NCBI GenBank assembly: GCA_030600545.1
Contig: JAUVLV010000007.1
Coordinates: 651 to 64,650 of the forward strand
Direction: 5' to 3'
Length of the DNA stretch: 64,000 nt
Source: Candidatus Aegiribacteria sp.
Lineage (GTDB): Bacteria; Fermentibacterota; Fermentibacteria; Fermentibacterales; JCC-6
Position numbers and translations under genes: made by a program. The notes under the pieces were generated by a model. The model was not told where the DNA came from. It searched no databases and saw only the letters and a list, made by a program, of their open reading frames with translations. Positions within the stretch are counted from its first letter, which is position 1. Every line of letters begins with the position of its first letter. Below, piece by piece: positions 15,485 to 35,001 of this stretch.

Positions 15485-16090
15485 TTATGATTTCACTCTT
15501 ATAGAAATATCTTCCTTATCGTTGTACCCTTTTAGCGAGGATACAAGACCTGTAACAGCTCCCTTAATGATACTTGAAGGGAATTCACTCAGTTCGATAA
15601 GCCTGCCTCCCAGTTTCACTTCAACACTGCTCGAGGCGTAGTAACAATCCTCCTCCCTCTTCTCTCCCTGAAGAATAGCTTCTGCCAGCCTCCTGCAGTC
15701 CATTCCGCATTTTCCGCATTCTTCTGCCGTTTTCTGTGGAAGAAGGTTGAATGTTTTCCTGTATATATCTTCATAATCAATACCGGAATTTTCTCCATTG
15801 TACTGTGCGAGAAGCAGTGAACCATCTTCGATGGGCTCGCTGCCGCAGTAAATAATGGGAGCTGCCAGATAAATATGAGAACGCAGCAGAACGATATCCG
15901 GAGGCATGGATCGCATTATCTCCATTGCGAATGAAGAACCAGGGAAAGATACATTGCACTCTCCCGCTTCATTCTCTGAGATAACACATATCTTCCTGTT
16001 CCGCACAGTATCGCAGAAGTTAGTTATAAATTCGTTCACAAGATTGTCAGTACCGGTAACTTTAAGACATTTCATAGTTATACCCGCCAA
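15485..16090 (-). CDS. Fe-S cluster domain protein of unknown function (last gene of the tungstate-transporter operon)
   Basis: 201 aa. CGKCGMDCRRLAEAILQGEKREEDC resembles the RnfB-N-terminal / putative Fe-S cluster domain pattern (CxxCxxxC...C). The N-terminus is vaguely MobB-like but has no P-loop. Confidence 0.45.
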   Translation of the reverse strand: MAGITMKCLKVTGTDNLVNEFITNFCDTVRNRKICVISENEAGECNVSFPGSSFAMEIMRSMPPDIVLLRSHIYLAAPIIYCGSEPIEDGSLLLAQYNGENSGIDYEDIYRKTFNLLPQKTAEECGKCGMDCRRLAEAILQGEKREEDCYYASSSVEVKLGGRLIELSEFPSSIIKGAVTGLVSSLKGYNDKEDISIRVKS

Positions 16091-16093
16091 TTC

Positions 16094-17119
16094 TTAGAAT
16101 ACATGAACCGAGCTTGCCTTGAAAGATATATAGACTTCACTGCCAGCCGTAAGCTTCAATTCGATTACCGCATTTCTCGTTACATGTGATACTATAACAA
16201 AACTGCTGCAATCTACGGACACGCTGCAGGATGCTCCCATCTGCTCAATAGAACTTATGGTTCCGAAAAATCTGTTCCGTTCGCTCGTTACCGAAGAAGT
16301 GCAGGATATTACTACCGATTCCGGTGGAACAGCAATGAACCCTCGTCCATTTCTGGGAAAAGTGTGTCTTACGCTCAGTTCCCTTATATCCGCCAGATTA
16401 CCATCGAACTCAACCGGGAACACGTTCTTCATTCCTATGAACGATGCCATGAACGGAGTTGCGGGACTATAGAATATTTCATCTATCGTACCCTCCTGCT
16501 CAATCTTCCCGTCCCTGATTACCGCACCGTGGGTACCCATTGAAAGGGCATCCGTAAAGTCGTGCGTCGTCATCAGAAATGTTGTTCCCGTTTCATTGTG
16601 AAGCCGTTTCAGTTCGTTTCTTATCTCGCCTTTGAACATCTGGTCAAGGGAGCTGAGCGGTTCATCCAGAAGAATTACTTCGGGGCCGGTTATAAGTGCT
16701 CGGGCAAGGGCAGTTCGCTGTTTTTCGCCGCCGCTGAGTTTTCCGGGTAATCTATCCAGAAGCCGTCTCAAATCAAGAACTTCCACAAGTACATCGAAAT
16801 CGTAATCGTTTCGATTCGATGAGTAACGGACTCCGTACATGATGTTCTGCCTGACCGAAAGGTGTGGAAAAAGTGCGGTATCCTGGTAGACAATACCAAC
16901 ACTCCGTCTTCCGGGAGGGTTATCTGTAACATCGTGACCCGCTACCTCAATTGTACCTGTGTCCGGCTTAACAAGACCTGCAATCGTTTCAAGAAGGAGC
17001 GTTTTACCCGAACCGGTAGGTCCCATGAGCATGAAGAATACACCTTCCGGCACATCAAGGTGCAGCGGTCCAAGCTGGAATTCTTTGAAACTTACACTGA
17101 GATCCTTCAGCCTGATCAA
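16094..17119 (-). CDS. wtpC: Tungstate/molybdate ABC transporter ATP-binding protein with C-terminal TOBE/Mop-like domain
   Basis: Walker A GPTGSGKT, signature LSGGEKQR, Walker B ILLDEP, plus about 110 aa of C-terminal beta-rich extension. Confidence 0.85.
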   Translation of the reverse strand: MIRLKDLSVSFKEFQLGPLHLDVPEGVFFMLMGPTGSGKTLLLETIAGLVKPDTGTIEVAGHDVTDNPPGRRSVGIVYQDTALFPHLSVRQNIMYGVRYSSNRNDYDFDVLVEVLDLRRLLDRLPGKLSGGEKQRTALARALITGPEVILLDEPLSSLDQMFKGEIRNELKRLHNETGTTFLMTTHDFTDALSMGTHGAVIRDGKIEQEGTIDEIFYSPATPFMASFIGMKNVFPVEFDGNLADIRELSVRHTFPRNGRGFIAVPPESVVISCTSSVTSERNRFFGTISSIEQMGASCSVSVDCSSFVIVSHVTRNAVIELKLTAGSEVYISFKASSVHVF

Positions 17120-17898
17120 ACCGTTTTTCGCTTCCTGGAAGTAAGAACTCTGAGAGCAATGAATATCAAAAGGCTCATTGCTATAAGTATGAACGCTACC
17201 GGTTGGGAGTACTCAAGACCGTAAGCCTGATATCTTTCGAACATCAGAACAGGGGCAATCATTGGATGATAGGCTATAACAATAACCGCGCCGAATTCGC
17301 TGAGAGCCCTGGCGGCACTCATTATTGTTCCGGCGAGCATGCTTCTTCCGGCAAGGGGAAATGTAACTCGCCTGAATGTGGAAATCTTTGAAGCACCGAG
17401 GGTCATAGAGACCTTTTCAAGCCTTTCCGGAATGGATGCGAAACCCTCCTTGGCAGCGTTTATGAAAAAAGGGATCGATACGAATACAAGAACTGTAATT
17501 ATCCCGGCTGGACTTCCCATTATTCTTATTCCCAGGTCTGCAAGTATCTTACCGAACCAGTGATTTCTGCCGGATACAGCAAGTATGGCAATACCTACAA
17601 CCGGATGCGGAATAACTATGGGAATATCAACTATGCTCTCAACAAGTTTCTTCCCCGGGAAATCCTTTCTTGCAAGGAGGTACGCAAATGGGGTTCCCAG
17701 TATAAGGCAGATAACAGCGGCCATTCCCGAAGTGTAAAGACTCAGTAGAACGGCGTCCACTATCTCCCCGTCGTGCAGGGATTCCCAGATAATACCCGGT
17801 GATGGCGCTGTCGCGATGTTTACCAGCGGAAGGGCCAGAAAAGCAAGCACCACCACCGCAAAAGCAATGCAGATCCAGATGAATGGACCTGATTTCAT
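17116..17898 (-). CDS. wtpB: Tungstate/molybdate ABC transporter permease
   Basis: 260 aa with six hydrophobic segments and the CysTW/ModB-type EAA loop region (MTLGASKISTFRRVTFPLA). 4-nt overlap with the ATPase gene. Confidence 0.85.
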   Translation of the reverse strand: MKSGPFIWICIAFAVVVLAFLALPLVNIATAPSPGIIWESLHDGEIVDAVLLSLYTSGMAAVICLILGTPFAYLLARKDFPGKKLVESIVDIPIVIPHPVVGIAILAVSGRNHWFGKILADLGIRIMGSPAGIITVLVFVSIPFFINAAKEGFASIPERLEKVSMTLGASKISTFRRVTFPLAGRSMLAGTIMSAARALSEFGAVIVIAYHPMIAPVLMFERYQAYGLEYSQPVAFILIAMSLLIFIALRVLTSRKRKTV

Positions 17899-17901
17899 CG
17901 C

Positions 17902-18852
17902 TTACTCGACCAGGTCAGCAAGGCATTCCGGTATTGATGCCGCATCAGTCTCGGAGGAAATTCTACAGGGAATGAAGGGAGGCTGCCCCTTCTCTGACAA
18001 TACTGCGAGACCACCATCGGGTGACAGCATGTATTCAAGGAACGCTGTGGCCGCATCCGTATTCGGTGCCCGATTCAACAGTGTTATGCCATAGGCAATT
18101 GGAGCCCCTGTAACGGTTCTAGTCTCTCCAGGGGAATTCGCGGCTATTCTGGTTGATACCGTAGCGTAAAGATCAGCAAAATCCGGGTCTCCGAGGTTGA
18201 TTTCCGGAGGAAAATCAACGTATTCAAGATCGTGCTGAACCGCTACCGAAAGATATTCAAAGGCGTAGTCCAGATGACCGCTTTGAAGGAGCGCGATCAG
18301 TTCAACCGAGCGGGGGCGGATATTTCTTTCATCACGGTTTTCAAGTAGTGAAACCGCTATTCCCGAAATATCATAATAATCCTCAGCGAGCTGCAGCACC
18401 AGCAGAGTTCTGTAACCACAGGGATCAGCATCGGGGTCGGAATGGCCCCATTCAACATCGTCGTTCTGCAGTATTTCAATCCAGTTATCCGCGGTTATCT
18501 CATCCGCGAAGCGGCTTTGCGGAGTATAGGCAAGCACCATTCTGTTCGTTGCGAAAATGGCGTTCCAGGACGCTAGGTCCGGAATCAGCATATTGTCTAT
18601 CACACGATAATCGGCTGAAGCCATTATGTCGCAGTCTTCCCTGTCCAGCTCGGTTATCTTCCTTGCGCAGGCAACGCTTCCCGCGGATTCCCGTCTTACA
18701 TCAACATCGGGATACATTTCTTCGAATTGCTGTTCAATGATCTCGAGAGGAACCGTCAGGCTTCCCGCATGAAATATCGTAACAATTCCTGAAATGTCTT
18801 CTGCAAGCAAAATTGCCGACAGTATGAGAACAAAAGCTATACTCTTTCTCAA
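17902..18852 (-). CDS. wtpA: Periplasmic tungstate/molybdate-binding protein, WtpA-like
   Basis: IFHAGSLTVP, ESAGSVACARK, ASADY, DPCGYRTLLVLQLAEDYY resemble WtpA-type oxyanion-binding proteins. TTG start at 18852 follows GGAGGT and yields a signal peptide. The ORF-track ATG at 18921 is probably too far upstream. Confidence 0.78.
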   Translation of the reverse strand: MRKSIAFVLILSAILLAEDISGIVTIFHAGSLTVPLEIIEQQFEEMYPDVDVRRESAGSVACARKITELDREDCDIMASADYRVIDNMLIPDLASWNAIFATNRMVLAYTPQSRFADEITADNWIEILQNDDVEWGHSDPDADPCGYRTLLVLQLAEDYYDISGIAVSLLENRDERNIRPRSVELIALLQSGHLDYAFEYLSVAVQHDLEYVDFPPEINLGDPDFADLYATVSTRIAANSPGETRTVTGAPIAYGITLLNRAPNTDAATAFLEYMLSPDGGLAVLSEKGQPPFIPCRISSETDAASIPECLADLVE

Positions 18853-19045
18853 TCCATTACCTCCACTGAAAGAATGAAAAATTACGGTTGGGAATATATG
18901 CGTTATGTCTATCTGACACAATGGGGCCGGATTTCACTTGAGACACTTATGCAATTAAAATCAGTCTGATAAAGCCTTGTCTTTCCCATCTTTTTCACCT
19001 CTACCTCTTGCAATCCCTCGCAATAGTGCGTACACTAAAAGTACA

Positions 19046-19350
19046 ATGGGAAGAAAAATACGACCTGACTGGAAAGGTGCCCTGCACCACGTGATGGCTC
19101 GCGGGATTGATGGCAGAGCTGTTTTCAATTCCGAGAAAGATCGCTCAGACCTCTACCAGAGGAAATCATAGGAATCCTGAACTCACAAACGCCAGAGCTT
19201 TAATAGCATGGATATGTTGGAAACGACTGGGGTTAAGTAAAACAGAATGTGCAAAACTTCTTCATATGTACAGATCAGGAACATCGAAAGCAATCTGCAG
19301 AGGCGCTCAGCTTGTAGAAGATCGTACTTTCTCCGGGGAACTTAATTTGC
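19046..19350 (+). pseudogene. Degraded IS200-like / Y1 (RayT-type) transposase gene
   Basis: The N-terminal 40 codons (RKIRPDWKGALHHVMARGIDGRAVFNSEKDR) match the Y1-transposase start and then hit a stop. A second frame carries a DnaA-C-like HTH tail (ARALIAWICWKRLGLSKTECAKLL). The central ~150+ codons of a full-length gene are absent. Confidence 0.5.
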
Positions 19351-19973
19351 TAAGTGTCGCAAGTGAAGTCCGGCCCCGCAAGGAGTTCGATGATTTCATT
19401 GGCCATCATGGCTGCCACGATGGCGACTCTTGATGAAAGCGTACCCAGGGAAAGGTCGCTTTCCTGATCCCCTACGATCGTAAGGTTTTCCCTCCTGTCA
19501 ACTCTGATCAGATCAGTCCTTCCAAAACCTGCAATACCCGAACAGGAGAACACGGGTTTGCCGGGTAATCCCTCAAGCCAGGATTCAAGGAGCATGATCT
19601 TTGTCTTCTCGCTGTCCACAGCTTCAACGAGCACATCACAGTCCGCAAAAATGGAACAGGCGTTTTCAGAATCGATAAGTCTGTTGTGGATCTTAACTTC
19701 AGCATCGGGGTTTATTAGTATTAGATTGCGTTTCAGAGCTTCAACCTTGGGATATCCAATCTGATCTGCAAAATAGAATTGCCTGTTTAGATTGTTCAGT
19801 TCAACGGAATCGAAATCGGCGATCACGAGACTGCCAACCCCGGCACGAGTTAGTATTGCTGCTACATTCGATCCTATACCGCCAGCTCCGGTGATACCTA
19901 TTGAACTGTTGTTAAGAAGAACCGTAAGACCGGGTGGATTGTCTCGGAATGCATTAGTTTTTTCGTCAGTCAT
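19350..19973 (-). CDS. thiF: ThiF/MoeB/HesA-family E1-like adenylyltransferase (short form)
   Basis: 207 aa. Nucleotide-binding GITGAGGIGSNVA and DFDSVELNNLNRQ motifs. Confidence 0.8.
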   Translation of the reverse strand: MTDEKTNAFRDNPPGLTVLLNNSSIGITGAGGIGSNVAAILTRAGVGSLVIADFDSVELNNLNRQFYFADQIGYPKVEALKRNLILINPDAEVKIHNRLIDSENACSIFADCDVLVEAVDSEKTKIMLLESWLEGLPGKPVFSCSGIAGFGRTDLIRVDRRENLTIVGDQESDLSLGTLSSRVAIVAAMMANEIIELLAGPDFTCDT

Positions 19974-20138
19974 ATTTAAATTCTAAACAATCATTTCCCG
20001 AAGTGCCAGAGTCCTTTTGCAAGGGTTGTTTCCAGCCTCTGCAGTTTGTAACTTTCATGAGTATATTTCAATGATATTTTTATTATTACTATTATCAGAT
20101 GCTTTTTCAATTACTGGCACAAACACAGGGAGTTTTAT

Positions 20139-20948
20139 ATGGCAAGTACATACAACGCCGGTGAGATTCTTGAGAAACAGAAGGTTCTCGGTACTTTTGA
20201 GTACAGCCCCAAACCATCCATACGAGGGTATACGGGGGAAATACTCAGAGTTGATATCCATGAACCTTCCTTCAGGATCGTACCGGTATCCGAGAAAATG
20301 AAAGATGTATTCACCGGAGGAAAAGGGTTCGATCTCTGGATGATGTGGCAGGAAGTAACATCGGAAACAAAGTGGGATAGCCCCGAGAACCCCATCTGCA
20401 TAGCAGCAGGTCCCCTTGGAGGTACTCCTTCTTTTTCCGGATCCGGCAAATCTATTGTTACAACTATATCTCCTACAACCGGATCCGCGGTTGATTCCAA
20501 TGTTGGAGGACACTTCGGACCCTTGCTCAAGTTTTCAGGTTTTGACTGCCTCGTTATCACAGGAAAATCAGAAAAAGAAGTAATTGTATTCATTGATGGA
20601 ATGAATGGAAAAGTTCAGGTGATTGAATCACCGCTTCTTTCGGTGAATTCACACCTGGCCGCGGATGAGCTGGCTGAAATGTACTCCGATAATGATGATG
20701 ACAAGCGTCATATTTCTACGGTTTCCTCCGGCATCGGAGCGGAGCACGCATGGATCGGATGCCTGAATTTCTCCTGGTGGGACTGGAGAAGAAAAACAAT
20801 GAGGCTGAAACAAGCCGGAAGGGGCGGAACAGGCACCGTTTTCAGAAACAAGGGTTTGAAAGCCCTTGTGGTTAAGGCTCCACGAACAAGACCGGTATGG
20901 ACGATCTCACAGTTAGATACTGCTCCGCGGGAGGTATCAAATGATTGA
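20139..20948 (+). CDS. Aldehyde:ferredoxin oxidoreductase family, N-terminal domain (domain 1) only
   Basis: 269 aa. GGKGFDLWMMW, ICIAAGPLGG, SPTTGSAVDSNVGGHFGPLLKFSGFD and KQAGRGGTGTVFRNKGLKALVV follow AOR domain 1. The ORF stops at the domain 1/2 boundary. AGGGAG Shine-Dalgarno. Confidence 0.85.
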   Translation: MASTYNAGEILEKQKVLGTFEYSPKPSIRGYTGEILRVDIHEPSFRIVPVSEKMKDVFTGGKGFDLWMMWQEVTSETKWDSPENPICIAAGPLGGTPSFSGSGKSIVTTISPTTGSAVDSNVGGHFGPLLKFSGFDCLVITGKSEKEVIVFIDGMNGKVQVIESPLLSVNSHLAADELAEMYSDNDDDKRHISTVSSGIGAEHAWIGCLNFSWWDWRRKTMRLKQAGRGGTGTVFRNKGLKALVVKAPRTRPVWTISQLDTAPREVSND

Positions 20949-21402
20949 TATAAAAATTGTGGACGCGATCATTGAAAAATGGAATACCGATCCTGACTTC
21001 GTTATCGAAATGATGCAGGATGTTCAGGACGAATTCCGATATATCCCGAAGGAAGCGCTGGAAAGAATATCTGACAGAACCGAAAAACCAAGGGGCAAGC
21101 TGTTCCATATAGCAACTTTCTACAGTGCTTTCAGTCTTGATCAAAGAGGTGAAAAGGAAATACAGGTCTGCATGGGAACAGCGTGTTACGTTAAAGGAGC
21201 TCCGGATGTTCTTGCAGCCCTCGAAAGGGATCTTGGCATATCAAGCGGAGAAACAACACCTGATGGCAAATTCACACTTACAGAAGTCAGGTGTCTTGGC
21301 TGTTGTGGAATTGCTCCGGTGATAACGATTGGCAATGAGGTTATCGCAGAGGTCAAACCTTCACAGGTTAGCAACCTTATCTCCAGTTACTGCAAGAGCT
21401 GA
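20941..21402 (+). CDS. NuoE/HydC-like thioredoxin-fold [2Fe-2S] subunit
   Basis: 153 aa. Cys pattern VCMGTACYVKG ... RCLGCCGIAPV. 8-nt overlap with the upstream gene. Confidence 0.85.
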   Translation: MIDIKIVDAIIEKWNTDPDFVIEMMQDVQDEFRYIPKEALERISDRTEKPRGKLFHIATFYSAFSLDQRGEKEIQVCMGTACYVKGAPDVLAALERDLGISSGETTPDGKFTLTEVRCLGCCGIAPVITIGNEVIAEVKPSQVSNLISSYCKS

Positions 21403-21412
21403 GGGAGTTATC

Positions 21413-23275
21413 ATGAATACCAATGCAATAGATCAATTAAAAACTCTTCTTGAATCATCTGCAGGCGCTGCAAGTGATACGGCATTATTCCTCACGGTCC
21501 ATCTAGGTACGTGTGGAATAGCCGCTGGAGCAGGTAGAACGCTTGAGGCTGTGAAAACCTCTATTACATCCGGAAGCGTTCAGCCCATTGAACTGAGATC
21601 CAGCGGATGCGCAGGCCTTTGTAGCTGTGAGCCTATGATATCCGTCAGCAGGAATGGTGAACAAACGGTGATGTACCTTGATGTTACCGAGGACAAGGTC
21701 AATGACCTGTTAGATTGTATCAGAGGAGTAAAAACAGCTGAAGAATGTAGTTTAAAGACTATAACCCACGATGATCCCTTCTACCTCAAGCAGCAAACGG
21801 TAGTATTTGTCAATCGAGGGCTCATCGATCCGGAAAGCCTTGATGATGCTCTTGCAAGTGGTGCCTACAAAGGGCTGGCCAGCATACTTGACAATATGGA
21901 TCCCGCAGAAGTCATCACAGAAATAACTAAATCGGGACTTCGAGGAAGGGGTGGTGGTGGTTTCCCTGCCGGAGTGAAATGGTCTTCCTGCGTCAGTGCG
22001 TCTGAACGGACTGGAGGCATCCCTGTAATAATCTGTAATGCGGATGAGGGTGATCCTGGCGCATATATGGATAGATCTATTCTGGAGTCCGATCCTCATT
22101 CGATCATAGAGGGCATGGCTATCGGAGCATACGCGATCGGGGCAGAGGAGGGTTATATTTACATCAGAAAAGAATACCCCCTCGCCATGGAAATCCTTGA
22201 GAATGCAATCCAACAAGCTCGCGAGAAGAACCTTCTTGGAAAGGGTATACTCGGAACTGATTTCTCTTTTGATCTCGTCATTCATCGCGGAGCAGGAGCA
22301 TTTGTCTGTGGTGAATCATCAGCCCTCATGGTCTCAATGAGCGGTATGCCGGGTGAACCTCGAGCGAAGTACATTCATACTGTTGAATCCGGTTACAAAG
22401 GACGTCCAACAGTCCTCAACAACGTCGAGACTCTGGCTAATATTCCGAGAATTATTACAAGGGGAGCTAAATGGTTTGCATCCATAGGAACCGGAGATGT
22501 TTCCGAGAATCCGTGGAACGGTTCATCCGGAACGAAGGTCTTTTCGCTGGTCGGAGATATTAATAACGCTGGTTTAATAGAGATTCCAATGGGTATTACT
22601 CTCAGAGAAATCATCTTCGATATCGGCGGCGGAATCCCCGATGAAAAGGAATTTAAAGCAGTTCAGACCGGAGGTCCCTCCGGAGGAGTCCTCCCTGCTG
22701 AAAAGCTTGATCTTGCGGTTGATTTCGACACATTAACTGAAGCAGGCTCTATGATGGGTTCCGGCGGTATGATCGTCATGAACAATGAAACATGTATGAT
22801 CCAGATAGCAAAATACTTCGTTGATTTTCTCAAAGAAGAGTCCTGCGGCAAGTGCACACCCTGCAGGGAAGGGCTTGTCGCCCTTGGTACAATTCTGGAA
22901 AGAATAATCAACGGTGATGGCCGCAATGGTGACATCGAACTCCTCGAGGAATATGGACAGAACATGTGCGAAACCAGCCTGTGCGCGCTGGGTCAGACCG
23001 CGGCAAATCCTGTTCTCAGCACCATCGAGTATTTCCGGGATGAGTACGAAGAACACATACGACACGGAAAATGCAGAGCGCTCAAGTGCAAGGCGCTTAT
23101 TGAGTACTACATTAACGCGGAGAACTGTACAGGCTGCAATATCTGTGCCAGAAACTGCCCGGTGGACGCAATCGAGGGCAGCCTTAAGGAACCACATGTT
23201 ATAGACCAGAAGAAATGTATACGCTGCGGAGTCTGCAGAGAAGTATGCAACTTCAATGCGGTGGAGGTGCGGTAA
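21413..23275 (+). CDS. NuoF/HydB-like NAD(P)H-binding FMN Fe-S subunit with extra N-terminal [2Fe-2S] and C-terminal 2x[4Fe-4S] domains
   Basis: GLRGRGGGGFPAGVKW (FMN/NADH site). ESCGKCTPCREG (N3-type cluster). N-terminal GTCG...SGCAGLCSCEP. C-terminal CTGCNICARNCP and CIRCGVCREVC. The ATG at 21413 follows GAGGGAG; the ORF-track start at 21329 overlaps the previous gene. Confidence 0.9.
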   Translation: MNTNAIDQLKTLLESSAGAASDTALFLTVHLGTCGIAAGAGRTLEAVKTSITSGSVQPIELRSSGCAGLCSCEPMISVSRNGEQTVMYLDVTEDKVNDLLDCIRGVKTAEECSLKTITHDDPFYLKQQTVVFVNRGLIDPESLDDALASGAYKGLASILDNMDPAEVITEITKSGLRGRGGGGFPAGVKWSSCVSASERTGGIPVIICNADEGDPGAYMDRSILESDPHSIIEGMAIGAYAIGAEEGYIYIRKEYPLAMEILENAIQQAREKNLLGKGILGTDFSFDLVIHRGAGAFVCGESSALMVSMSGMPGEPRAKYIHTVESGYKGRPTVLNNVETLANIPRIITRGAKWFASIGTGDVSENPWNGSSGTKVFSLVGDINNAGLIEIPMGITLREIIFDIGGGIPDEKEFKAVQTGGPSGGVLPAEKLDLAVDFDTLTEAGSMMGSGGMIVMNNETCMIQIAKYFVDFLKEESCGKCTPCREGLVALGTILERIINGDGRNGDIELLEEYGQNMCETSLCALGQTAANPVLSTIEYFRDEYEEHIRHGKCRALKCKALIEYYINAENCTGCNICARNCPVDAIEGSLKEPHVIDQKKCIRCGVCREVCNFNAVEVR

Positions 23276-25263
23276 TGGCTGATAAAAACATGGTAACTAT
23301 TGAAATCGACGGAAATTCAGTTTCGGTTGAGAAAGACACAACCATTCTTGAAGCAGCTCAAAGTATCGATATATACATTCCTGCCCTCTGCAACAATGAA
23401 CTGGTAGAACCGTATGCGGCATGCAGGCTCTGTATTGTGGAAGTGGATGACGGAAGAAAGACAAAACTTGTTACTTCGTGCAATTATCCTGTTCGAAGAC
23501 CCATCAGTGTATACACCTCTTCAGAAAAGGTACTCAGGAACAGAAAAATCACTTTGGAGATGATGCTTTCCAGATGGCCCAATGTGCAGGTTATCAAGGA
23601 TCTCGCTAAGAATGCCGGAGTAGAAAAAGCCCGTTATCAGCACCCTGCTGTCGATCTGAATTCCAATGCCTGCATTCTATGCGGTCTCTGCATGAGAGTC
23701 TGCGAGCAGGGTATCTGGGAGAATATCATTAACTTCACCAACAGGGGCGCTGAAAGAAATGTTCGAATGCCTTACGATTCCGATCAGCCCCATTGTGTTG
23801 GATGCGGCGCCTGCGCTGAAATATGTCCCACCGGGGCAATAACCATGGCTGACGACCCCAACCAGCCCTTCGATGCCGAAATGATAAGAAAAGCCGGCAT
23901 GAGGATAACCGAGGAGATGATCAGGTACGACGAGGAGCAGTGCGATATGCGCGGTGTGGGAACCGCCCACCTTGTTGAGATAATGGATGCCTACGATCTC
24001 CTCCCTGTCATGAACTACCGATACGGAAAGCATGAAGAAACTCCGAAAATCAGCTCCGATGTCTTCAGAAAACACTTCACAAGTGGCAAACCTGACGGAT
24101 GCTGGCTCGGATGTACCATGGCCTGTGCCAAGGCTATTGAGAACTTTGAACTGAAAACCGGTCCTTACAAGGGTGAGAGAGTCCTTGTTGATGGCCCGGA
24201 GTATGAAACGCTTGGCGGTTCATCCAATATGGGAATATTCGATCCCTATTTCGTAGCCGAGTACAATTTCTACTGTGATACGTACGGACTTGATACGATA
24301 TCCTTCTCAACAGGAACATCCTTTATCATGGAATGTTACGAAGCAGGTGTTCTTGATAAGGAAAAAACAGGAGGGCTTGAACTTCCCTTCGGCGCCAAGG
24401 ACGCAGCTCTTGAACTCCTTCACCAGATAGGCCGCGGAGAAGGTTTCGGCCTTGTAGCCGGCAAGGGCATTCGTTACATGAAAAAATACTTCGTAGAGAA
24501 TTTTGGTGCCGATCCGGGTTTTGTGTTTGACATAGGCATGGAAGCCAAAGGGATGGAATACTCGGAATACGTGACCAAGGAATCCCTTGCCCAGCAGGGC
24601 GGTTACGGAATAGCCCTTAAAGGCGCCCAGCATGACGAAGCATGGCTCATCTTCATGGACATGGTCAACAAGCAGATACCAACTTTTGAAGATAAGGCGG
24701 AAGCCCTTCATTACTTCCCCATGTGGAGAACCTGGTTCGGCCTCTGCGGTCTTTGCAAGCTCCCGTGGAACGATATTGAACCTGCTGACAACGCTGAAAC
24801 CGATGAACCGGCAAAAGTTCCCGGACATGTTCAGGGGTACTGCGAGTTCTTCGAAGGTGTAACAGGAAAACCTCAGACAATGGACAGCCTGGTAAGAATG
24901 TCCGAGAAAGTCTACAACTTCCAGCGCGTGTTCAACCTGAAGATGGGCTTCGGCAGGCGCGAACATGACGCAATACCTTACAGGTCCGCTGGCCCTGTCA
25001 CAGTCGAGGAATACGAATCACGTCAGGAAAGGTACGACACTCAGCTTAAAGAAGACGCAGGTATTGATCCCACGGGAATGTCTTCCGAAGAGAAAGTAGC
25101 CCTTACGCGAAAGCACAGGGAAGCCCAGTACGAGCATCTGCTGAACGCGGTATACAAGCGCAGGGGATGGACAAATGACGGTGTTCCGACTGTCGCCAAG
25201 CTTATGGAACTCGGGGTGGATTTTCCCGATGTGATCGAGCTTGTCAAGAAGCATGGAGGATAA
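23275..25263 (+). CDS. Fusion: NuoG/HydA-N-terminal-like [2Fe-2S] + 2x[4Fe-4S] ferredoxin domains joined to AOR-family domains 2-3 (pterin/[4Fe-4S] part)
   Basis: The N-terminus IYIPALCNNELVEPYAACRLCIVEV...TSC is the C-x10-C-x2-C-x13-C pattern. Then ACILCGLCMRVCE and HCVGCGACAEICPTGA. The remainder matches AOR C-terminal domains (DGCWLGCTMACAK, VDGPEYETLG, YNFYCDTYGLDTIS). The ATG at 23275 overlaps the upstream stop (TAATG). Confidence 0.85.
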   Translation: MADKNMVTIEIDGNSVSVEKDTTILEAAQSIDIYIPALCNNELVEPYAACRLCIVEVDDGRKTKLVTSCNYPVRRPISVYTSSEKVLRNRKITLEMMLSRWPNVQVIKDLAKNAGVEKARYQHPAVDLNSNACILCGLCMRVCEQGIWENIINFTNRGAERNVRMPYDSDQPHCVGCGACAEICPTGAITMADDPNQPFDAEMIRKAGMRITEEMIRYDEEQCDMRGVGTAHLVEIMDAYDLLPVMNYRYGKHEETPKISSDVFRKHFTSGKPDGCWLGCTMACAKAIENFELKTGPYKGERVLVDGPEYETLGGSSNMGIFDPYFVAEYNFYCDTYGLDTISFSTGTSFIMECYEAGVLDKEKTGGLELPFGAKDAALELLHQIGRGEGFGLVAGKGIRYMKKYFVENFGADPGFVFDIGMEAKGMEYSEYVTKESLAQQGGYGIALKGAQHDEAWLIFMDMVNKQIPTFEDKAEALHYFPMWRTWFGLCGLCKLPWNDIEPADNAETDEPAKVPGHVQGYCEFFEGVTGKPQTMDSLVRMSEKVYNFQRVFNLKMGFGRREHDAIPYRSAGPVTVEEYESRQERYDTQLKEDAGIDPTGMSSEEKVALTRKHREAQYEHLLNAVYKRRGWTNDGVPTVAKLMELGVDFPDVIELVKKHGG

Positions 25264-25268
25264 TCGGG

Positions 25269-25291
25269 GCGGGAACTGATTGAGTTCCCGC
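25269..25291 (+). other. Perfect 9-bp intercistronic stem-loop
   Basis: GCGGGAACT-gattg-AGTTCCCGC lies in the 36-nt gap between the AOR fusion gene and the ThiS-like gene. No U-tract follows. Confidence 0.5.
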
Positions 25292-25299
25292 TTACAATC

Positions 25300-25497
25300 A
25301 TGATAGTTGTCAATGGAATAGCCCTCGACTGGCATGAAGGTAAAACCGTTCGTGATGTCATAAGGGAAATGAATTACCTCTTTCCCCTTCTTATCGCACG
25401 AATCAACGGTAAATTCATACCCAGAAACAAGTACGATTCAACAGAAATTCCCGATGAAGCTACAGTAGATATTATCCATCTGATGTCCGGCGGATAA
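25300..25497 (+). CDS. ThiS/MoaD-family ubiquitin-like sulfur-carrier protein
   Basis: 65 aa ending in the diglycine ...HLMSGG, with size and hydrophobic pattern typical of ThiS/MoaD. A ThiF-like gene lies divergently on the other side of the operon. Confidence 0.7.
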   Translation: MIVVNGIALDWHEGKTVRDVIREMNYLFPLLIARINGKFIPRNKYDSTEIPDEATVDIIHLMSGG

Positions 25498-25624: not shown

Positions 25625-27751
25625 TTACTGGCCCGGATTATTTTCCATATTAAGGACACTGCTTAGCTTATCGAGAAGATCAGATATGCGATATGGTTTG
25701 GAAAGGAAATCTGATATTCCGCTTCCGATGAATTGCTTTTCAACGTGCGTTTTACTATAACCGCTCGAAATTATAACAGGAATAGTGGAATCGATTTCCC
25801 TGAGCTTCGAGCATGTCTCTTTCCCGTCCATCTGTGGCATTGTCAGGTCAAGAACAACGCAGACAATCTCTGCCCGTTTCTCCTTGAACAGGTCAAGAGC
25901 TTCCTGTCCTCCAGTTGCTGTAAGCACTGAAAATCCCAGTGTTTCCAACATCTCTTTTCCTACTGAAAGAACAGTTTCAACATCATCAACAAGAAGTACG
26001 GTTCCTCTGCCAATGAGTTCGTTGTCATCCCGAAATTCCCCCGGTGCTGAATCTGAGGGACCCCAATATGCCGGGAACGCTATCTTTATTGTTGAACCCT
26101 TCCCGGGTTCGCTTGAGACTCTGATAGCACCCCCATGCCCCCTGACGATTCCTATCACAGCTGCAAGCCCCAGTCCTCTGCCGAAGAATTTTGTAGTAAA
26201 GAACGGATCAAACATGCTGGCAATTGTTTCTTTATTCATTCCGCAACCTGTATCTGTCACTTTGACGAATACATAAGTACCCTCCGGATTTCCTTGCTTG
26301 ATGTATTCTTCGGTAATCCCGGTACCGTCAAATTCCATTACACCTGAAGTAAGTTTGATGATGCCGCTCTTCTCACCAATTGCTTCCGAAGCGTTTGTGA
26401 TGAGATTCATGACTATCTGGCTGATCTGTGAGATATCGGCTCTGATTGGCGGAAGCTTTTCTGCAAGGTTGTAACTGAGAATTATGTTCTTTGATATTGA
26501 TGTCTTGAGAAGATAGGTCATTTCTTCAATAATATCGTTTAGATTCAGAATTTCAATTATAAATTTACCTTTACCTGAATACGCCAGCATCTGCCTGCTT
26601 AGGTCGGAAGCCCGCATTGCCGCTTTCTCAATTTGCATGATGTTCGCATGCGTTGAAGAAGATGGAGAAAGGCCTCTAAGGGCAAGATCAGCGTTTCCAA
26701 GAATACCAACCAGCAGATTGTTGAAGTCATGAGCAATGCCACCGGCAAGTACGCCAAGGCTCTCCAGCTTCTGGGCATGCTGAACACCCTTCTCAAATTC
26801 AAGGCGTTCCTCTTCCGCCCTTCTGCGATCCGAAATATCTCGTACAACTGACTGGAGATAGTCCTCTTCAGCGATAGACACCTTGTTCAAAGCCACCTCA
26901 GCGCAAAACGGAGTTCCATCCCATCTGCAATGAAGCCATTCAAAAAGCTGGGGTATCTCCTTGAGCGCTTCTAATGCTCTTCTTTCTCCCAAAAAACGGG
27001 ATTTTGTACCGTTAGGCTGGAGTTCGGGAGAAAAACGGTAAGGCGATTTTCCAATGATCTGCCCGCGCGTGCAACCGAACATCGCAAGAGTCACCGGATT
27101 ACAGTCCACTATTCTGTAATCCTTCATTATGAATATCGCGTCTCTTGCTGAATTGAATAAATTACGGTAGCGTTGTTCGCTTTCCCTGAGTGCGCTCTCA
27201 GCTTTTTTCCTTTCAAGTATTTCACGCATGAGCATATCATGTGAAAGACATCCTGCGAGTGATAATGCAAATTTTGAAACAACACTTCGAAGCTGGTTGA
27301 TTTCCCTTTCGCTAAAAGGCTCTTCTCGGGATACCGAATAGAGTTTGAGAACACCTATTTCATTCAGAGGAAATATCGTGAACATTCCCCTGTCCATTCC
27401 TTTTTCAGTAACCAGATCCTGAAAAGCCGCCTCAGAAGAGGCTACGCTTACAATTTCGCCGGTTCTTAGTGCCTCAAAAAGCGGACTGTTAATCGAAAGA
27501 TGAGTATCTTTAACCTTGAACTCAGGATAAGCATAAATGAGAGTAACTTCAGCAGAATCCTGTATTTGAGTCAGAAAAGCATTTCTAATCCAGATGGATA
27601 CGAATCCCAGATTTTTTCTCAGCATCAATGTATTTAGAAAACTGATGCAGTTTTCCCTCACATTGATTGAAGTACCAATTGAAAGTGACAGTTCGTATAG
27701 AAGAGAAATCTCCTGAATGATCTTTCCGGAATCAGAATTGTTCTTACTCAT
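25625..27751 (-). CDS. Soluble hybrid sensor histidine kinase (GAF-like, PAS, HisKA, HATPase_c, REC)
   Basis: H-box GGIAHDFNNLLVGILG, N/G boxes NLITNASEA, DTGCGM, GRGLGLA, receiver LLVDDVE...DLTMPQMDG. No transmembrane segment seen. Confidence 0.85.
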   Translation of the reverse strand: MSKNNSDSGKIIQEISLLYELSLSIGTSINVRENCISFLNTLMLRKNLGFVSIWIRNAFLTQIQDSAEVTLIYAYPEFKVKDTHLSINSPLFEALRTGEIVSVASSEAAFQDLVTEKGMDRGMFTIFPLNEIGVLKLYSVSREEPFSEREINQLRSVVSKFALSLAGCLSHDMLMREILERKKAESALRESEQRYRNLFNSARDAIFIMKDYRIVDCNPVTLAMFGCTRGQIIGKSPYRFSPELQPNGTKSRFLGERRALEALKEIPQLFEWLHCRWDGTPFCAEVALNKVSIAEEDYLQSVVRDISDRRRAEEERLEFEKGVQHAQKLESLGVLAGGIAHDFNNLLVGILGNADLALRGLSPSSSTHANIMQIEKAAMRASDLSRQMLAYSGKGKFIIEILNLNDIIEEMTYLLKTSISKNIILSYNLAEKLPPIRADISQISQIVMNLITNASEAIGEKSGIIKLTSGVMEFDGTGITEEYIKQGNPEGTYVFVKVTDTGCGMNKETIASMFDPFFTTKFFGRGLGLAAVIGIVRGHGGAIRVSSEPGKGSTIKIAFPAYWGPSDSAPGEFRDDNELIGRGTVLLVDDVETVLSVGKEMLETLGFSVLTATGGQEALDLFKEKRAEIVCVVLDLTMPQMDGKETCSKLREIDSTIPVIISSGYSKTHVEKQFIGSGISDFLSKPYRISDLLDKLSSVLNMENNPGQ

Positions 27752-28865
27752 ACAGAATCAATACAACCGTCGTAAGATTCAGATATTCAAGATATCGTTC
27801 TCCTAAGGATGAAATTTCTCCCAGAGTCAGAACTCCTTCGGGGATTTCCTCATTATCAGCAGGTTGAATTCCACGAATGATTGCCTTGAGTTCCTCAGTA
27901 TATTCGTTTTCAAGAAGAAGCGCTCTGGATATGCAGTCTGAAACAAGACAGTGACGAATTCTTCGTCCTTCAGGTAACCGGCAATCTTCCGCAGCCATTT
28001 GTGCTGCTTTAATCAGAGACTCTTTCTTTCCGCCGAGAATATCGACTACCGCATTGCCCTGCACTTCCCCTCCACAGACAATATCACCTTCAGCAGTCAT
28101 GGCAACAGTGGCTCGCCCTATGCTTTCACAGCCCTCTCTAAATAGTCCAAGAGGGTATTCCTTTGCTATATCGTAGAAATCGTTTTCAGAGAACTTCCTG
28201 CCCGAATCCTTTTCTATAGCCTTACGGTACACTTCGAAAGCATTTTCCCAGTTAAATTCATTGATCAAGTTTCGATCCGTTCGCGTCGCAACAAATGGAC
28301 CAAGCATTTTCTTCCAGCCATGACGGACACCAAGAGAACTCTCAAGCTTGACAAGAACAACTATCGCTGCATCATTACAAAACCCTTCGGATGAAAAAAG
28401 GCATAGGTCTTTCTTCATGCTCTGGTAGCCTGCTCCTCCGCCGAAGTAATTAACTGAATTTCCCAGCTTATCAAGCATCTCCGAAAGGAACAATCCGATA
28501 TTAGGAGCCATTCCGTCGATCAGGATAATGGCGGTGTATTTAGTATCGGATTCCATATTCTGAAATCCTGTGAAATCAGGAATCTTTATGCAATCCGGTT
28601 CCTTTATACATAAAACAGCCGGTTTCCTTATTCCAGGCATTTTACGGATGATTGCGCCTCTGGTGCATTTCGACTCGCCATGAATGACACCGGGAAATAT
28701 CCCACCGAAAAAGCATATCCCCTTGTTATTCAAGTCACTCGTCATACCTTCAACATCAGGTACACTATCTTCCCCAATAAGGATCATGACTACTTCATTG
28801 TCTTTTACATCAAGCTCGCAAACAGCTTCAACGATGCTATCTCGATTCACTTCAGTCAAAAACAT
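27744..28865 (-). CDS. FIST-domain signal-transduction protein
   Basis: 373 aa. The pattern of FIST_N/FIST_C (…VVMILIGEDS…FFGGIFPGVI…, …YFGGGAGYQS…, …CGGEV…) is recognised by eye. Its stop overlaps the kinase start by 8 nt (ATGAGTAA). Confidence 0.62.
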   Translation of the reverse strand: MFLTEVNRDSIVEAVCELDVKDNEVVMILIGEDSVPDVEGMTSDLNNKGICFFGGIFPGVIHGESKCTRGAIIRKMPGIRKPAVLCIKEPDCIKIPDFTGFQNMESDTKYTAIILIDGMAPNIGLFLSEMLDKLGNSVNYFGGGAGYQSMKKDLCLFSSEGFCNDAAIVVLVKLESSLGVRHGWKKMLGPFVATRTDRNLINEFNWENAFEVYRKAIEKDSGRKFSENDFYDIAKEYPLGLFREGCESIGRATVAMTAEGDIVCGGEVQGNAVVDILGGKKESLIKAAQMAAEDCRLPEGRRIRHCLVSDCISRALLLENEYTEELKAIIRGIQPADNEEIPEGVLTLGEISSLGERYLEYLNLTTVVLILYE

Positions 28866-29189: not shown

Positions 29190-31889
29190 ATGATGAAAAG
29201 CCCGATTCACAATGATCTGAAAACGGATATGCTTGATAATGCTCCTGTGATCATCGCATTCCTCGATATGGATCACAATATTGTCTGGGCTAACAAAGCA
29301 TATCAGAAAACCACAGGTTTGTCTCTGCAGGAAATGGAAGGTAAGAAATGCTACTTATCCTGGGGACTTGCCGAACCTTGTAGTAATTGCCCTGTGATGA
29401 AAGCAATTAATACGGGAGAACCCAGCGAAGCCGAGTTGACTCCGCAAAATCAGGAACAATGGTCTGATACCCAGGGTTTATGGTTGATAAGGGCAATGCC
29501 AATCAGAAATGAGGACGGCGATATAATCGGTGCAATGATGGTTGCTTTCGATATCACCGACCGCAAAAAGGCGGAGAAAACGCTCCGAGAAAGTGAAGAA
29601 CAGCTACAAACTCTGATTAACGCTATGCCGGGTTTTATATGTTTCAAGGATGGTGATGGACGTTGGATCAAGGTTAATGATGCCGGCATCCGCATTTTCC
29701 AGCTTGAGAATATTGACTATCGAGGAAGGACAGATTCCGAACTGGCTGAACTCAGCAACCATCTTCAAGGTGCTTTCCTTACGTGCGAAAAATCCGATAA
29801 AATGGCATGGAATGAGAAACGTCTTTTTACCCAGGAAGAGAGAATTTCTCAGTCTGATGGAACGATTCGAGATTATGATGTCACCAAAGTCCCTGTTTTT
29901 CATTCGGATGGCAGGCGTAAGGGCATCGTTGTTATTGGACATGACATCACAGACCGCAAGAATGCGGAGGATGCGCTGCGGAAGAGCGAAAAGAAATACC
30001 GCTCCCTCACCGAGAACATGTCTGACATCGTGTATTCGATTGACCTGAATGGCACTTTAACCTACATCAGTCCTCAGACAAAACAATATGGTATAAATCC
30101 TGAGACATTAATATCCAGGAATCTGTTGGAGATTGTCCACCCGGAAGACCGGGATAGCATTGCAAAAGAGTATCAGAGAGTTCTTGAAACAGGTAAGGAG
30201 TTTCCCAGCACATTCAGAGTGCTGGATACAGAGGAAGATATTCACTGGTTCGAAGATATAGGAAAAATCCAACGCGACAAAGAAGGGAACGTCACCGGAC
30301 TGGCGGGTGTTCTCCGCGACATCACCGAACGCAAACAGACAGAAAAAGCATTATGTGATAGCGAACAGAATTTCAGAGATATGACGAATCTTTTACCACA
30401 GATCGTCTTTGAGATTGATACCGATGGAAATCTCACTTTTGTGAATAAACAGGCATTTGATTCTTTTGGATATTCTCAAGAGGAATTCGAAAAAGGAGTT
30501 AATCTTCTGCAGACATTAATCCCGTCCGACAGAAAAAAAACAAAAGAGAACATACAGAATTCGTTGCGTGGAAAAGCTGTTAGAAATTCTGAGTATACTG
30601 CCCTGAGAAAAGATGGAAGCACATTTCCAATTGTAATATACTCAAGTGCAATTCTTAAAGATAACAAACCCGTTGGTTTAAGAGGAATCATTGTTGACGC
30701 TACCGAACTTAAGCATGCCGAAGAGGAAAAGGCACAGATCGAGGATCAATACCGTCAGGCTCAGAAAATGGAATCAGTCGGTCGTCTGGCGGGTGGAGTA
30801 GCTCACGATTTTAACAACATGCTTGGAGTAATTCTCGGTTACACGGAAATACTGCAGAACAAGATATCCCCAGACCAACCGATCTATGCTGCCCTTCAGG
30901 AGATCCATAAGGCCGCAGACCGCTCCGCCGACCTTACCCGGCAATTACTCGCCTTTGCCCGCAGACAGACTGTATCGCCCAAAGTGCTTGAACTTAATGA
31001 GACCGTGGAAGGAATGCTTAATATGCTCCTGCGGCTCATAGGCGAGGATATAGATCTCGTATGGCTGCCGGGTACGGATCTTTGGCCGATTATGGTGGAT
31101 CCGGCACAGATCGATCAGATTCTGGCCAATCTGTGCGTCAATGGCCGTGATGCCATCGCAGGCGTAGGTAAGATGACCATAGAAACAAGAAACGTTTTTC
31201 TCAACAAGTCCTATTGCAACAAATTTCCAGGATCTATCCCCGGCGAGTATATTCTTCTTGCCGTTAGTGACGATGGCTGTGGCATGGACAATGATACTCT
31301 GGAAAATCTCTTCGAACCATTTTTCACAACCAAAGAAGTTGGTCAGGGTACCGGCCTTGGGCTGGCCACTGTCTACGGCATAGTCAAGCAGAACAACGGT
31401 TTCATCAACGTATGCAGCAAACCTGGCGAAGGAACGACCTTTAATATCTACCTTTCAAGATACGTTGGGGAAAAAGCGCAGATGCAAAAGGAAAGTCAGA
31501 CGGAACCGGTTGGACATGGCAACGAAACCATCCTTCTGGTGGAAGATGAGCCGGCAATTCTGGAAATGGCAACGGCTATGCTTGAAATGCAGGGTTACAC
31601 CGTTTTGGCCGCCACCATACCATGTGAGGCCATCCTTATGGCCGAGAAATACGACAGCGAAATTCACCTGCTCATGACCGACGTGGTAATGCCCGAAATG
31701 AACGGTCGTGATCTTGCTAAAAAACTGTTATCACTTCGTCCGGATATTAAGTACCTGTTCATGTCCGGCTATACAGCCAACGTTATCGCCCACAGGCGTG
31801 TGCTGGACGAAGGTATTAATTTTATCCAGAAACCCTTCACTTTGCAGGACCTGTCTACAAAAGTGCGTGAAGTCCTGGACTGCGAATGA
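29190..31889 (+). CDS. Soluble multi-PAS hybrid sensor histidine kinase
   Basis: 899 aa. About four PAS/PAC repeats (recurring ...DITDRKxAEExLRxSE linkers). H-box GGVAHDFNNMLGVILG. HATPase motifs DDGCGM, GTGLGLA. C-terminal receiver (LLVEDEP...TDVVMPEMNG). Confidence 0.85.
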   Translation: MMKSPIHNDLKTDMLDNAPVIIAFLDMDHNIVWANKAYQKTTGLSLQEMEGKKCYLSWGLAEPCSNCPVMKAINTGEPSEAELTPQNQEQWSDTQGLWLIRAMPIRNEDGDIIGAMMVAFDITDRKKAEKTLRESEEQLQTLINAMPGFICFKDGDGRWIKVNDAGIRIFQLENIDYRGRTDSELAELSNHLQGAFLTCEKSDKMAWNEKRLFTQEERISQSDGTIRDYDVTKVPVFHSDGRRKGIVVIGHDITDRKNAEDALRKSEKKYRSLTENMSDIVYSIDLNGTLTYISPQTKQYGINPETLISRNLLEIVHPEDRDSIAKEYQRVLETGKEFPSTFRVLDTEEDIHWFEDIGKIQRDKEGNVTGLAGVLRDITERKQTEKALCDSEQNFRDMTNLLPQIVFEIDTDGNLTFVNKQAFDSFGYSQEEFEKGVNLLQTLIPSDRKKTKENIQNSLRGKAVRNSEYTALRKDGSTFPIVIYSSAILKDNKPVGLRGIIVDATELKHAEEEKAQIEDQYRQAQKMESVGRLAGGVAHDFNNMLGVILGYTEILQNKISPDQPIYAALQEIHKAADRSADLTRQLLAFARRQTVSPKVLELNETVEGMLNMLLRLIGEDIDLVWLPGTDLWPIMVDPAQIDQILANLCVNGRDAIAGVGKMTIETRNVFLNKSYCNKFPGSIPGEYILLAVSDDGCGMDNDTLENLFEPFFTTKEVGQGTGLGLATVYGIVKQNNGFINVCSKPGEGTTFNIYLSRYVGEKAQMQKESQTEPVGHGNETILLVEDEPAILEMATAMLEMQGYTVLAATIPCEAILMAEKYDSEIHLLMTDVVMPEMNGRDLAKKLLSLRPDIKYLFMSGYTANVIAHRRVLDEGINFIQKPFTLQDLSTKVREVLDCE

Positions 31890-35000: not shown

Positions 35001-35001
35001 A

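Follow-up and report, generated by a model that had tools for sequence, protein, structure and literature searches.

The question raised by this locus is how an enzyme of the aldehyde:ferredoxin oxidoreductase (AOR) family could be built when its three domains are divided between two genes and two other genes lie between them; in all characterised AOR/WOR members the three domains are carried on one polypeptide. The locus (20139-25497, plus strand) was found in a 64,000-nucleotide stretch of DNA from Candidatus Aegiribacteria (Fermentibacterota), the whole of which is referred to here as the window, and open reading frame (ORF) analysis resolved it into five closely packed genes, g1 to g5 (Table 1). 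The original prediction, made from the sequence, had assigned four genes to the interval. This holds for g1 to g4 but not for the end of the interval, as g4 stops at 25263 and g5 fills 25300-25497. The best-supported reading of our analysis is that the locus specifies an aldehyde oxidoreductase coupled to both NAD(H) and ferredoxin. The products of g1 to g4 probably form a single tungsten-dependent complex, a 'Type 1' member of the BfuABC (HydABC-type) electron-bifurcating enzymes.

The first gene encodes AOR domain 1 alone, as had been predicted. Its product matches Pfam AFOR_N (E=4e-46, residues 33-246) with no match to AFOR_C, and aligns to residues 3-213 of PfAOR, with an N-terminal extension of about 30 residues and a C-terminal tail of 23. 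In this alignment N121 of g1 corresponds to N93, K104 to R76, and A226-G-R-G-G230 to A184-GRGG. The equivalent segments of 1aor presumably contact the pterin phosphates and the bridging Mg2+, suggesting that in the complex the cofactor would sit at a subunit interface. In WOR5 the Mg2+ is held by the backbone carbonyls of Val93 and Ala196 (PMC12096430). Assignment of g1 to the YdhV type was rejected, as model NF007354 was matched by the N-domain only, with 87-101 bits against a cutoff of 868; the same was found for the unsplit relatives described below.

The remaining two domains are encoded by g4, whose product opens with a NuoG/HydA-type N-terminus and continues straight into AOR domains 2 and 3. 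Pfam detects Fer2_4 (residues 5-83), a Fer4 dicluster (129-191) and AFOR_C (213-647, E=5.5e-90), and profile searches of all four proteins bore out every domain assignment made earlier. Among solved structures, the g4 N-terminus is closest to WorA (9mqx_A; 1.6e-36, residues 6-196 against 4-190), a subunit of WorABCSL (WOR1 or Wor-Bfu) of Acetomicrobium mobile. This is a tungsten-dependent bifurcating aldehyde oxidoreductase (PDB 9mqx; PMC12318220, PMC9304861). An AlphaFold2 model of g4 (predicted local distance difference test score (pLDDT) 81.7; predicted template-modelling score (pTM) 0.77) was compared with known structures using Foldseek. Over its N-terminus it matched 9mqx_A with a template-modelling (TM) score of 0.68 and a root-mean-square deviation of 3.0 Å, and its C-terminal part superposed on the AOR large subunits 9mqx_D, 1aor and 1b25.

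All 16 cluster-ligand cysteines of g4 are invariant in 121 homologues. Twelve belong to the BfuA module (Cys 39, 50, 53 and 69 for the A1 [2Fe-2S] cluster, Cys 133/136/139/143 and 174/177/180/184 for two [4Fe-4S] sites) and four, C276/C280/C284/C494, align with the PfAOR [4Fe-4S] ligands C288, C291, C295 and C494. The His-ligated A3 cluster of HydA and NuoG is absent from g4, which has LSRWPNV where the His/Cys motif would be; A3 is also absent from WorA and from BfuB clade 45. In the AOR part, E311, Y310, H453 and T230 align with PfAOR Glu313, Tyr312, His448 and Thr243, which we take to be its active-site residues (numbering from the 1aor literature). These four positions are invariant in the same homologues, as are E309-Y310-E311 as a unit and the first DxxGL(C/D) pterin motif, D335-T-Y-G-L-D340 (D335xxG338xD340). 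The best solved match to domains 2 and 3 is AorB (98 bits); WorL, at 65 bits, falls outside the AOR clade of the window, which has no characterised member.

The two intervening genes form the NuoE/NuoF-like pair, with the extra clusters of HydABC-type enzymes, that the original prediction had described. The g2 product matches Pfam 2Fe-2S_thioredx over its full length (4e-46), and its closest relative of solved structure is WorC (9mqx_C, 9e-38), with HydC and NfnC next. By Pfam and structure-database match it has the [2Fe-2S] cluster C1 by which BfuC is recognised. The g3 product aligns end-to-end with five bifurcating BfuB chains, 9bov_B (1.7e-200), 8oh5_B, WorB (9mqx_B, 1.4e-191), 7t2r_B (2.8e-188) and 7q4v_B, the E-values extending to 3.1e-187. 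The BfuABC family is defined by four InterPro domains of BfuB, namely flavin mononucleotide (FMN)/NADH, SLBB, NADH_4Fe-4S (B1) and a C-terminal 2x[4Fe-4S] domain (B3, B4) (PMC9304861). Pfam equivalents of all four are present in g3: Complex1_51K (4e-44), SLBB (two matches of about 22 bits, below the Pfam cutoff of 27 bits), NADH_4Fe-4S (1e-32) and two C-terminal Fer4 domains.

Non-bifurcating NuoF homologues are described in the same source as having neither B2 to B5 nor the His of the B2 site, which in the A. mobile NiFe-BfuB is made up of C438, C476/T, H525, C531 and C536 (PMC9304861). Residues 27-125 of g3 align with the N-terminal [2Fe-2S] (B5) domains of BfuB chains, C34, C66 and C70 matching their cysteines and so accounting for three of the four ligands. 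The Cys of 'ETCM' and the His/Cys/Cys of 'EEHIRHGKCRALKC' align with C438, H525, C531 and C536 of 7t2r_B, and the equivalents of A202 and M204 are kept. Judged by alignment, g3 appears to have the features that separate bifurcating from non-bifurcating NuoF homologues, that is B5, the B2 His/Cys set, B3/B4 and A202/M204.

The ORFs and their junctions were as first described. There is an 8-nt overlap between g1 and g2 (ATGATTGA), with GGGAGG 5' of g2, a 10-nt gap between g2 and g3, and TAATG at the g3/g4 junction, and a purine-rich ribosome-binding site is found at every junction of g1 to g4. The start of g3 is most likely the ATG at 21413, which a GGGAG site precedes; the mechanical ORF opens at TTG 21329. 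In this arrangement g1 to g4 are translationally coupled.

A split of this kind could be an artefact, with a frameshift, a pseudogene or a chimeric assembly producing an AOR interrupted by an unrelated nuoEF pair, but comparative data have already refuted this explanation and its probability is negligible. Searching a species-representative genome collection identified 514 stretches encoding a relative, and the architecture of the best 80 of these loci was recorded, with the caveat that ORF calling is crude in high-GC loci. The order found in the window (AFOR_N / BfuC / BfuB / BfuA::AFOR_C) recurs, with the same junctions, in 52 of the 80 loci, in several phyla. This count leaves out one locus that proved to be a normal fusion on translation (L029) and one that is error-ridden (L076). 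As the 52 loci were assembled independently, neither chance nor chimeric assembly can account for the shared order. The start codons, ribosome-binding sites and overlaps are also well formed, and the ligands invariant. Frameshift-like breaks were seen in one low-quality relative, L076 (Candidatus Sabulitectum silens JCC-6), in which the homologues of g1, g2 and g3 each fall into 2-3 tblastn pieces in different frames; these look like sequencing or assembly errors, not biology.

Protein-level searches gave the same picture. The 120 closest relatives of g1 comprise 86 AFOR_N-only proteins, 34 in which AFOR_N is fused to a NuoE-type domain and none with AFOR_C. On the other side of the split, at least 120 clusters (90% identity) of proteins of about 660 residues contain Fer2_4, Fer4 and AFOR_C without AFOR_N, with Fermentibacteria, Cloacimonetes, Deltaproteobacteria, Myxococcota, Armatimonadetes and KSB1 among the names of their sources. 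The BfuA module and AFOR_C share one ORF in 76 of the 80 census loci; the g4 proteins of L001 to L003 are 94% identical. The fusions of AFOR_N to NuoE/BfuC are about 420-460 residues long (L069, L072 and L073; P0159, P0167, P0195, P0225, P0232 and others) and are often labelled 'NADH:ubiquinone oxidoreductase subunit E' by their sources. They make up the AFOR_N::BfuC / BfuB / BfuA::AFOR_C order of 3 of the 80 loci, and such natural fusions are independent evidence for placing domain 1 and the flavin module in one complex. Six further loci (L036, L053, L055, L058, L059 and L065) carry AFOR_N / BfuA::AFOR_C with no BfuBC in their flanks, three (L077, L078 and L079) encode an unsplit AOR, and the remainder are cut by contig ends.

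Three loci required individual inspection. A 933-aa ORF in L036 was rejected as an AFOR_N+BfuA+AFOR_C chain, the AFOR_N match lying in another frame and the length of the ORF being due to a stop-free upstream extension in high-GC DNA. Apparent separation of BfuA and AFOR_C in L029 was likewise rejected, as on translation the stop precedes the start codon. L070 contains, about 3 kb downstream of a complete operon, a second partial copy of the BfuA end and AFOR_C (12238-13377; 59-70% identical to the window protein), possibly a paralogue truncated where the contig stops.

The point at which the AOR was divided can be placed by comparison with unsplit relatives. When the C-terminal half of g4 was used in an exhaustive search (E<=1e-30, 101 representatives), the closest matches were the fused proteins and unsplit AORs of 700-740 residues (AFOR_N+AFOR_C). 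The latter (for example P0242, P0243 and L077-L079) are 59-71% identical to g4 domains 2 and 3 and 48-54% identical to g1, and are collinear with both. Residues 15-246 of g1 match P0242 7-236 (54% identity) and residues 196-661 of g4 match P0242 245-710 (59% identity), so the break and the BfuA graft both lie precisely within the linker of 8 residues that separates domain 1 from domain 2. The unsplit AORs share CxxxCxxxC, FGLCGLC and the N-terminal extension with the split clade; unlike the window, they are single polypeptides with no BfuA module and no BfuBC neighbours. Those of L077 (5549-7696), L078 and L079 (3875-6049), of about 715-724 residues, come from Thermotogae, Bipolaricaulis and Anaerolineae metagenome-assembled genomes (MAGs). 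Their domains 2 and 3 are 69-71% identical to those of the window, as near as many split homologues. A WorS-like polyferredoxin is encoded directly upstream of the L079 AOR, suggesting that the same catalytic module is used elsewhere with classical wiring. A neighbour-joining tree built from 422 columns of the AFOR_C core in 36 sequences showed split and unsplit forms interleaved, and monophyly of the fused forms was rejected, being recovered in 0 of 100 bootstraps; as this is a rough distance tree, no conclusion is drawn on the number of fission or fusion events.

In the complex that we propose, g1 would dock on the C-terminal half of g4 and rebuild a normal AOR fold, placing a W-bis-pyranopterin at the g1/g4 interface. 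Aldehyde would be oxidised to the acid at the tungsten, and electrons would move to the AOR [4Fe-4S] cluster (C276/C280/C284/C494) and, by homology, directly on through A4, A2 and A1 within the g4 polypeptide. From A1 they would pass to B1 and the FMN of g3, with the participation of C1 of g2, for joint delivery to NAD+, at the FMN, and to ferredoxin, by way of B3/B4 at the C-terminal end of g3. The split may plausibly be explained by a need for domain 2 to have a free N-terminus, without which no Fe-S module could be fused beside the AOR cluster.

The closest characterised counterpart is WorABCSL, a Type 2 Bfu enzyme by the classification of 2022; it had been purified the year before, in 2021, and its structure followed in 2025 (PMC9304861, PMC12318220). 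Both systems have a BfuABC-type core joined to a tungstopterin AOR, a BfuA with A1, A2 and A4 but no A3, and BfuB and BfuC with the full bifurcating cofactor set, and the presumed reaction (aldehyde + NAD+ + oxidised ferredoxin) is the same; WorA and WorC are, as noted, the best solved matches to the g4 N-terminus and g2. The wiring differs. WorL is an intact polypeptide of 604 residues and WorA a separate protein of 247 residues, ending in a Zn finger and a helix that recruits the WorS polyferredoxin, and three WorSL units are joined as a nanowire to one ABC core. In contrast, the window encodes no WorS, and the match of g4 to WorA ends at WorA residue 190 of 247, with neither Zn finger nor adaptor helix; at about residue 196 the WorA-type module runs into AOR domain 2 instead. 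No polyferredoxin gene was found in or next to the operon, and none is conserved in the related loci. Fused g4 would thus replace the polyferredoxin 'nanowire', the WorA Zn-finger plug and the 1:3 stoichiometry.

In placing its catalytic domain C-terminal to BfuA, and in its A4 entry point and ABC logic, the window system resembles the Type 1 Bfu enzymes (FeFe-HydABC, Fdh-Bfu, Nfn-Bfu and F420-Bfu; PMC9304861), and with a catalytic domain fused to BfuA its predicted architecture meets the definition of that type. The catalytic domains named for Type 1 in the accessible portion of that source are the H-cluster, Fdh pterin, Nfn-like and F420 domains, AOR not being among them. The window also differs from these enzymes in that the fused catalytic domain is two-thirds of a fold, which a fourth subunit, g1, completes. 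AorABC of Aromatoleum aromaticum (PDB 8c0z) likewise has an AOR wired to a flavin subunit for NAD+, with MoaD-like genes closing the operon, but it has a polyferredoxin (AorA), a flavin adenine dinucleotide (FAD) subunit unrelated to NuoF (AorC) and an intact AOR, and does not bifurcate. The class II benzoyl-CoA reductase BamB-I combines an AOR-family tungsten subunit with NuoEFG/HydABC-like subunits and is proposed to bifurcate (PMC9304861, PMC12096430). It differs in having an intact AOR-family protein with other active-site chemistry, and eight subunits including Hdr-like ones.

Several observations weigh against the bifurcating reading or limit it. WOR1 itself has been shown only to distribute electrons to ferredoxin and NAD+, with no endergonic step (PMC12096430). 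In g3, the position of the fifth B2-site residue (C476 in 7t2r_B) is an Ile, within 'LERIINGDG', whereas the NiFe enzyme has a Cys there and about two-thirds of BfuBs have a Thr (PMC9304861). The six loci with a g1/g4 pair and no nearby BfuBC suggest that the flavin module may not always be needed by the catalytic pair, which could act by itself or with partners from other parts of the genome; the genes next to these pairs are unrelated, the one exception being a Fer4/CdhD-like gene in L058.

These points bear most directly on an enzyme of the same architecture that does not bifurcate, an NAD+-linked AOR in which BfuBC acts as a diaphorase like AorC and ferredoxin is optional or unused. NAD-linked AORs do exist, as AorABC demonstrates (PMC6365974), and the potential of aldehyde oxidation (about -560 to -580 mV) is low enough to reduce NAD+ or ferredoxin uncoupled (PMC9304861, PMC12096430), while the Ile at the C476 position would suit such an enzyme. 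We nevertheless regard it as unlikely, given that g3 keeps the N-terminal [2Fe-2S] domain, the B2 His/Cys set and the C-terminal 2x[4Fe-4S] domain, all conserved across phyla, and that the closest characterised enzyme, WorABCSL, needs both acceptors, reducing NAD+ and ferredoxin only together (PMC9304861).

The same complex could also be imagined to run in reverse, NADH and reduced ferredoxin being confurcated to reduce a carboxylic acid to the aldehyde, for example in alcohol production. Bfu enzymes are described as reversible in principle (PMC9304861), AORs can reduce acids under favourable conditions (PMC6365974), and the organisms concerned are fermenters (PMC5030696). The energetics oppose this direction. 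Merging NADH (about -280 mV) with ferredoxin (about -500 mV) gives about -390 mV, far above the acid/aldehyde couple at about -560 to -580 mV, so acid reduction is disfavoured and NADH would make it harder than ferredoxin alone; nor is an alcohol dehydrogenase gene conserved beside the operon. Confurcating carboxylate reduction, which the original prediction had offered as an option, is therefore thermodynamically unlikely, and we consider this direction highly improbable.

Canonical AORs of about 605-640 residues are only 31-38% identical to the AOR clade of the window, the unsplit relatives matched none of the curated NCBIfam AOR equivalogs and the C-terminal half of g4 matched no NCBIfam AOR model, so any named substrate is a guess. 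The AOR cluster motif of g4, CxxxCxxxC, has one residue more than CxxCxxxC, and Gly489 takes the place of the Asp in the second DxxGLC pterin motif, although G492-L-C494 is kept. Position 489 is G in 109, S in 11 and A in 1 of the 121 homologues, and both deviations are common to the whole clade, including unsplit P0242 (FGLCGLC). Together with about 60 extra residues in domains 2 and 3, these features could indicate that the substrate of the tungsten site is not a simple aldehyde, as in WOR5/ASOR, GAPOR and BamB. The invariant residues at PfAOR Glu313, Tyr312, His448 and Thr243 fit ordinary aldehyde chemistry instead. BamB is among the weakest solved matches to g4 domains 2 and 3 (28 bits), and no gene for substrate-specific metabolism is conserved nearby, only the ThiF, ThiS, Wtp and Moa/Moe genes recurring as neighbours in related loci. 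We regard a special substrate as unlikely.

A variant of our proposal gives the split itself a function. Here g1 would serve as a detachable lid on the tungstopterin site, with the conformational cycle of the bifurcating BfuBC core mechanically linked either to loading of the cofactor or to access and turnover of the substrate, and the clade would oxidise a non-generic substrate. The idea draws on the residues of g1 that align with the phosphate/Mg2+ contacts of PfAOR, on the translational coupling of g1 to BfuC in the window and on their fusion in other lineages, and we hold it to be distinctly doubtful.

As WorABCSL has already been purified and solved, the concept of a bifurcating tungsten aldehyde oxidoreductase, an enzyme type known from gut bacteria, is not new. 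The searchable literature, which did not extend to a 2021 PNAS study with 92 WOR clades, yielded no account of a split AOR or a BfuA-AOR fusion; the split AOR and its direct fusion to BfuA are thus the only novel elements, and apparently undescribed. The locus does not represent a new category of system, but its architecture would be surprising and useful to specialists in tungsten enzymes and bifurcation. If our reading is correct, a tungsten AOR would be added to the Type 1 Bfu class, and this would be the first AOR-family enzyme in which fold and cofactor site are shared by two polypeptides. With the AOR cluster wired directly to A4, and neither a nanowire nor 1:3 stoichiometry, it would be a less complex enzyme in which to study how electrons from a low-potential tungsten site enter a bifurcating FMN/Fe-S core. 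The operon is widespread among anaerobes that have not been cultured (Fermentibacterota, Myxococcota and 'Deltaproteobacteria' MAGs, Acidobacteriota, Eisenbacteria, Cloacimonetes and others), in whose genomes its parts are labelled '(2Fe-2S)-binding protein', 'hypothetical protein' or 'NADH:ubiquinone oxidoreductase subunit E'. With its parts thus wrongly or incompletely annotated, metabolic reconstructions of these groups may miss both an aldehyde oxidation that yields NADH and reduced ferredoxin and the accompanying need for tungsten. The series of variants (unsplit, split pair, split with BfuBC, and AFOR_N::BfuC fusion) also lends itself to the study of how genes for a cofactor-binding fold are split and fused.

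The surroundings of the operon point to a supply of tungsten cofactor (Table 1). The g5 product matches Pfam ThiS (2.4e-9) and TIGR01683 (45.8 bits, cutoff 37.45), and a ThiS gene is found 3' of g4 in the majority of loci and in different phyla. The g5 product probably serves in maturation of the cofactor, not as a subunit of the enzyme; the aorABCDE operon, too, ends with MoaD-like genes (PMC6365974). The divergent ThiF/MoeB-family gene, which adjoins the operon in 25 of the 80 loci, encodes a probable activator of g5. The pair suggests a dedicated sulfur-carrier system for the tungsten cofactor, and in this operon context the thiamine names given by NCBIfam (ThiS/ThiF) are doubtful.

Table 1. 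Genes of the split AOR operon and of its tungsten- and pterin-related surroundings in the window.
Feature	Position	Strand	Length	Assignment
g1	20139-20948	+	269 aa	AOR domain 1 as separate subunit
g2	20941-21402	+	153 aa	BfuC (NuoE/HoxE-like) [2Fe-2S] subunit
g3	21413-23275	+	620 aa	BfuB (NuoF-like) FMN/NAD(H) subunit
g4	23275-25263	+	662 aa	BfuA/HydA-type module fused in frame to AOR domains 2-3
g4 residues 1-196	23275-23862	+		BfuA/HydA-type module: A1 [2Fe-2S], A2 and A4 [4Fe-4S]
g4 residues 197-662	23863-25263	+		AOR domains 2-3: predicted tungstopterin site and AOR [4Fe-4S] cluster
g5	25300-25497	+	65 aa	ThiS/MoaD-family sulfur carrier, ends in GG
ThiF/MoeB-family adenylyltransferase	19350-19973	-		Divergent from g1; Pfam ThiF 7.6e-35; NF006395 217 bits (cutoff 159)
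WtpA, WtpB, WtpC	16094-18921	-		Tungstate ABC transporter (NCBIfam and Pfam)
Pterin-cofactor genes	33574-37981	-		MoCF_biosynth protein, MoaA, MoeA, MobB-like; 8-12 kb downstream

Of the transporter genes, the first matches the WtpA model NF003196 above its cutoff (381 bits against 355). WtpB (E=7e-85) and WtpC (E=2.8e-97) are the best-scoring models for the next two, both below their cutoffs, and Pfam assigns SBP_bac_11, BPD_transp_1 and ABC_tran+TOBE to the three genes. A gene for a MobB/FeS-domain protein follows wtpABC, the stretch as a whole covering 15485-18921 on the minus strand. The pterin-cofactor genes match Pfam MoCF_biosynth, Radical_SAM+Mob_synth_C, MoeA_N+MoCF_biosynth and MobB, and in other Fermentibacterota loci the operon likewise has MoaA-like and MoeA-like genes next to it, judging by their sequences. 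The operon thus sits in a tungsten-uptake and pterin-cofactor island, which supports, but does not prove, tungsten as the metal. In the proposed system the products of g5, ThiF, WtpABC and the Moa/Moe genes would supply and mature the cofactor. Neither a Moco/Tuco riboswitch nor any other RNA element was detected upstream: Rfam gave no match above its gathering thresholds in the window, nor any in 18800-20300 when the limit was relaxed to E<=1.

Directly downstream of the operon, on the minus strand, lies a gene for a FIST-domain protein followed by one for a PAS hybrid histidine kinase/response regulator (25625-28865). A paralogous pair occurs at 41683-45088 (minus strand), and an 899-aa multi-PAS hybrid kinase is encoded between the two pairs (29190-31889, plus strand). 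At 11571-14546 (plus strand) a 706-aa ORF is followed by a gene for an NrdG-type radical-SAM activase (TIGR02495, 163 bits against a cutoff of 131); the two are probably an anaerobic ribonucleotide reductase pair unrelated to the operon.

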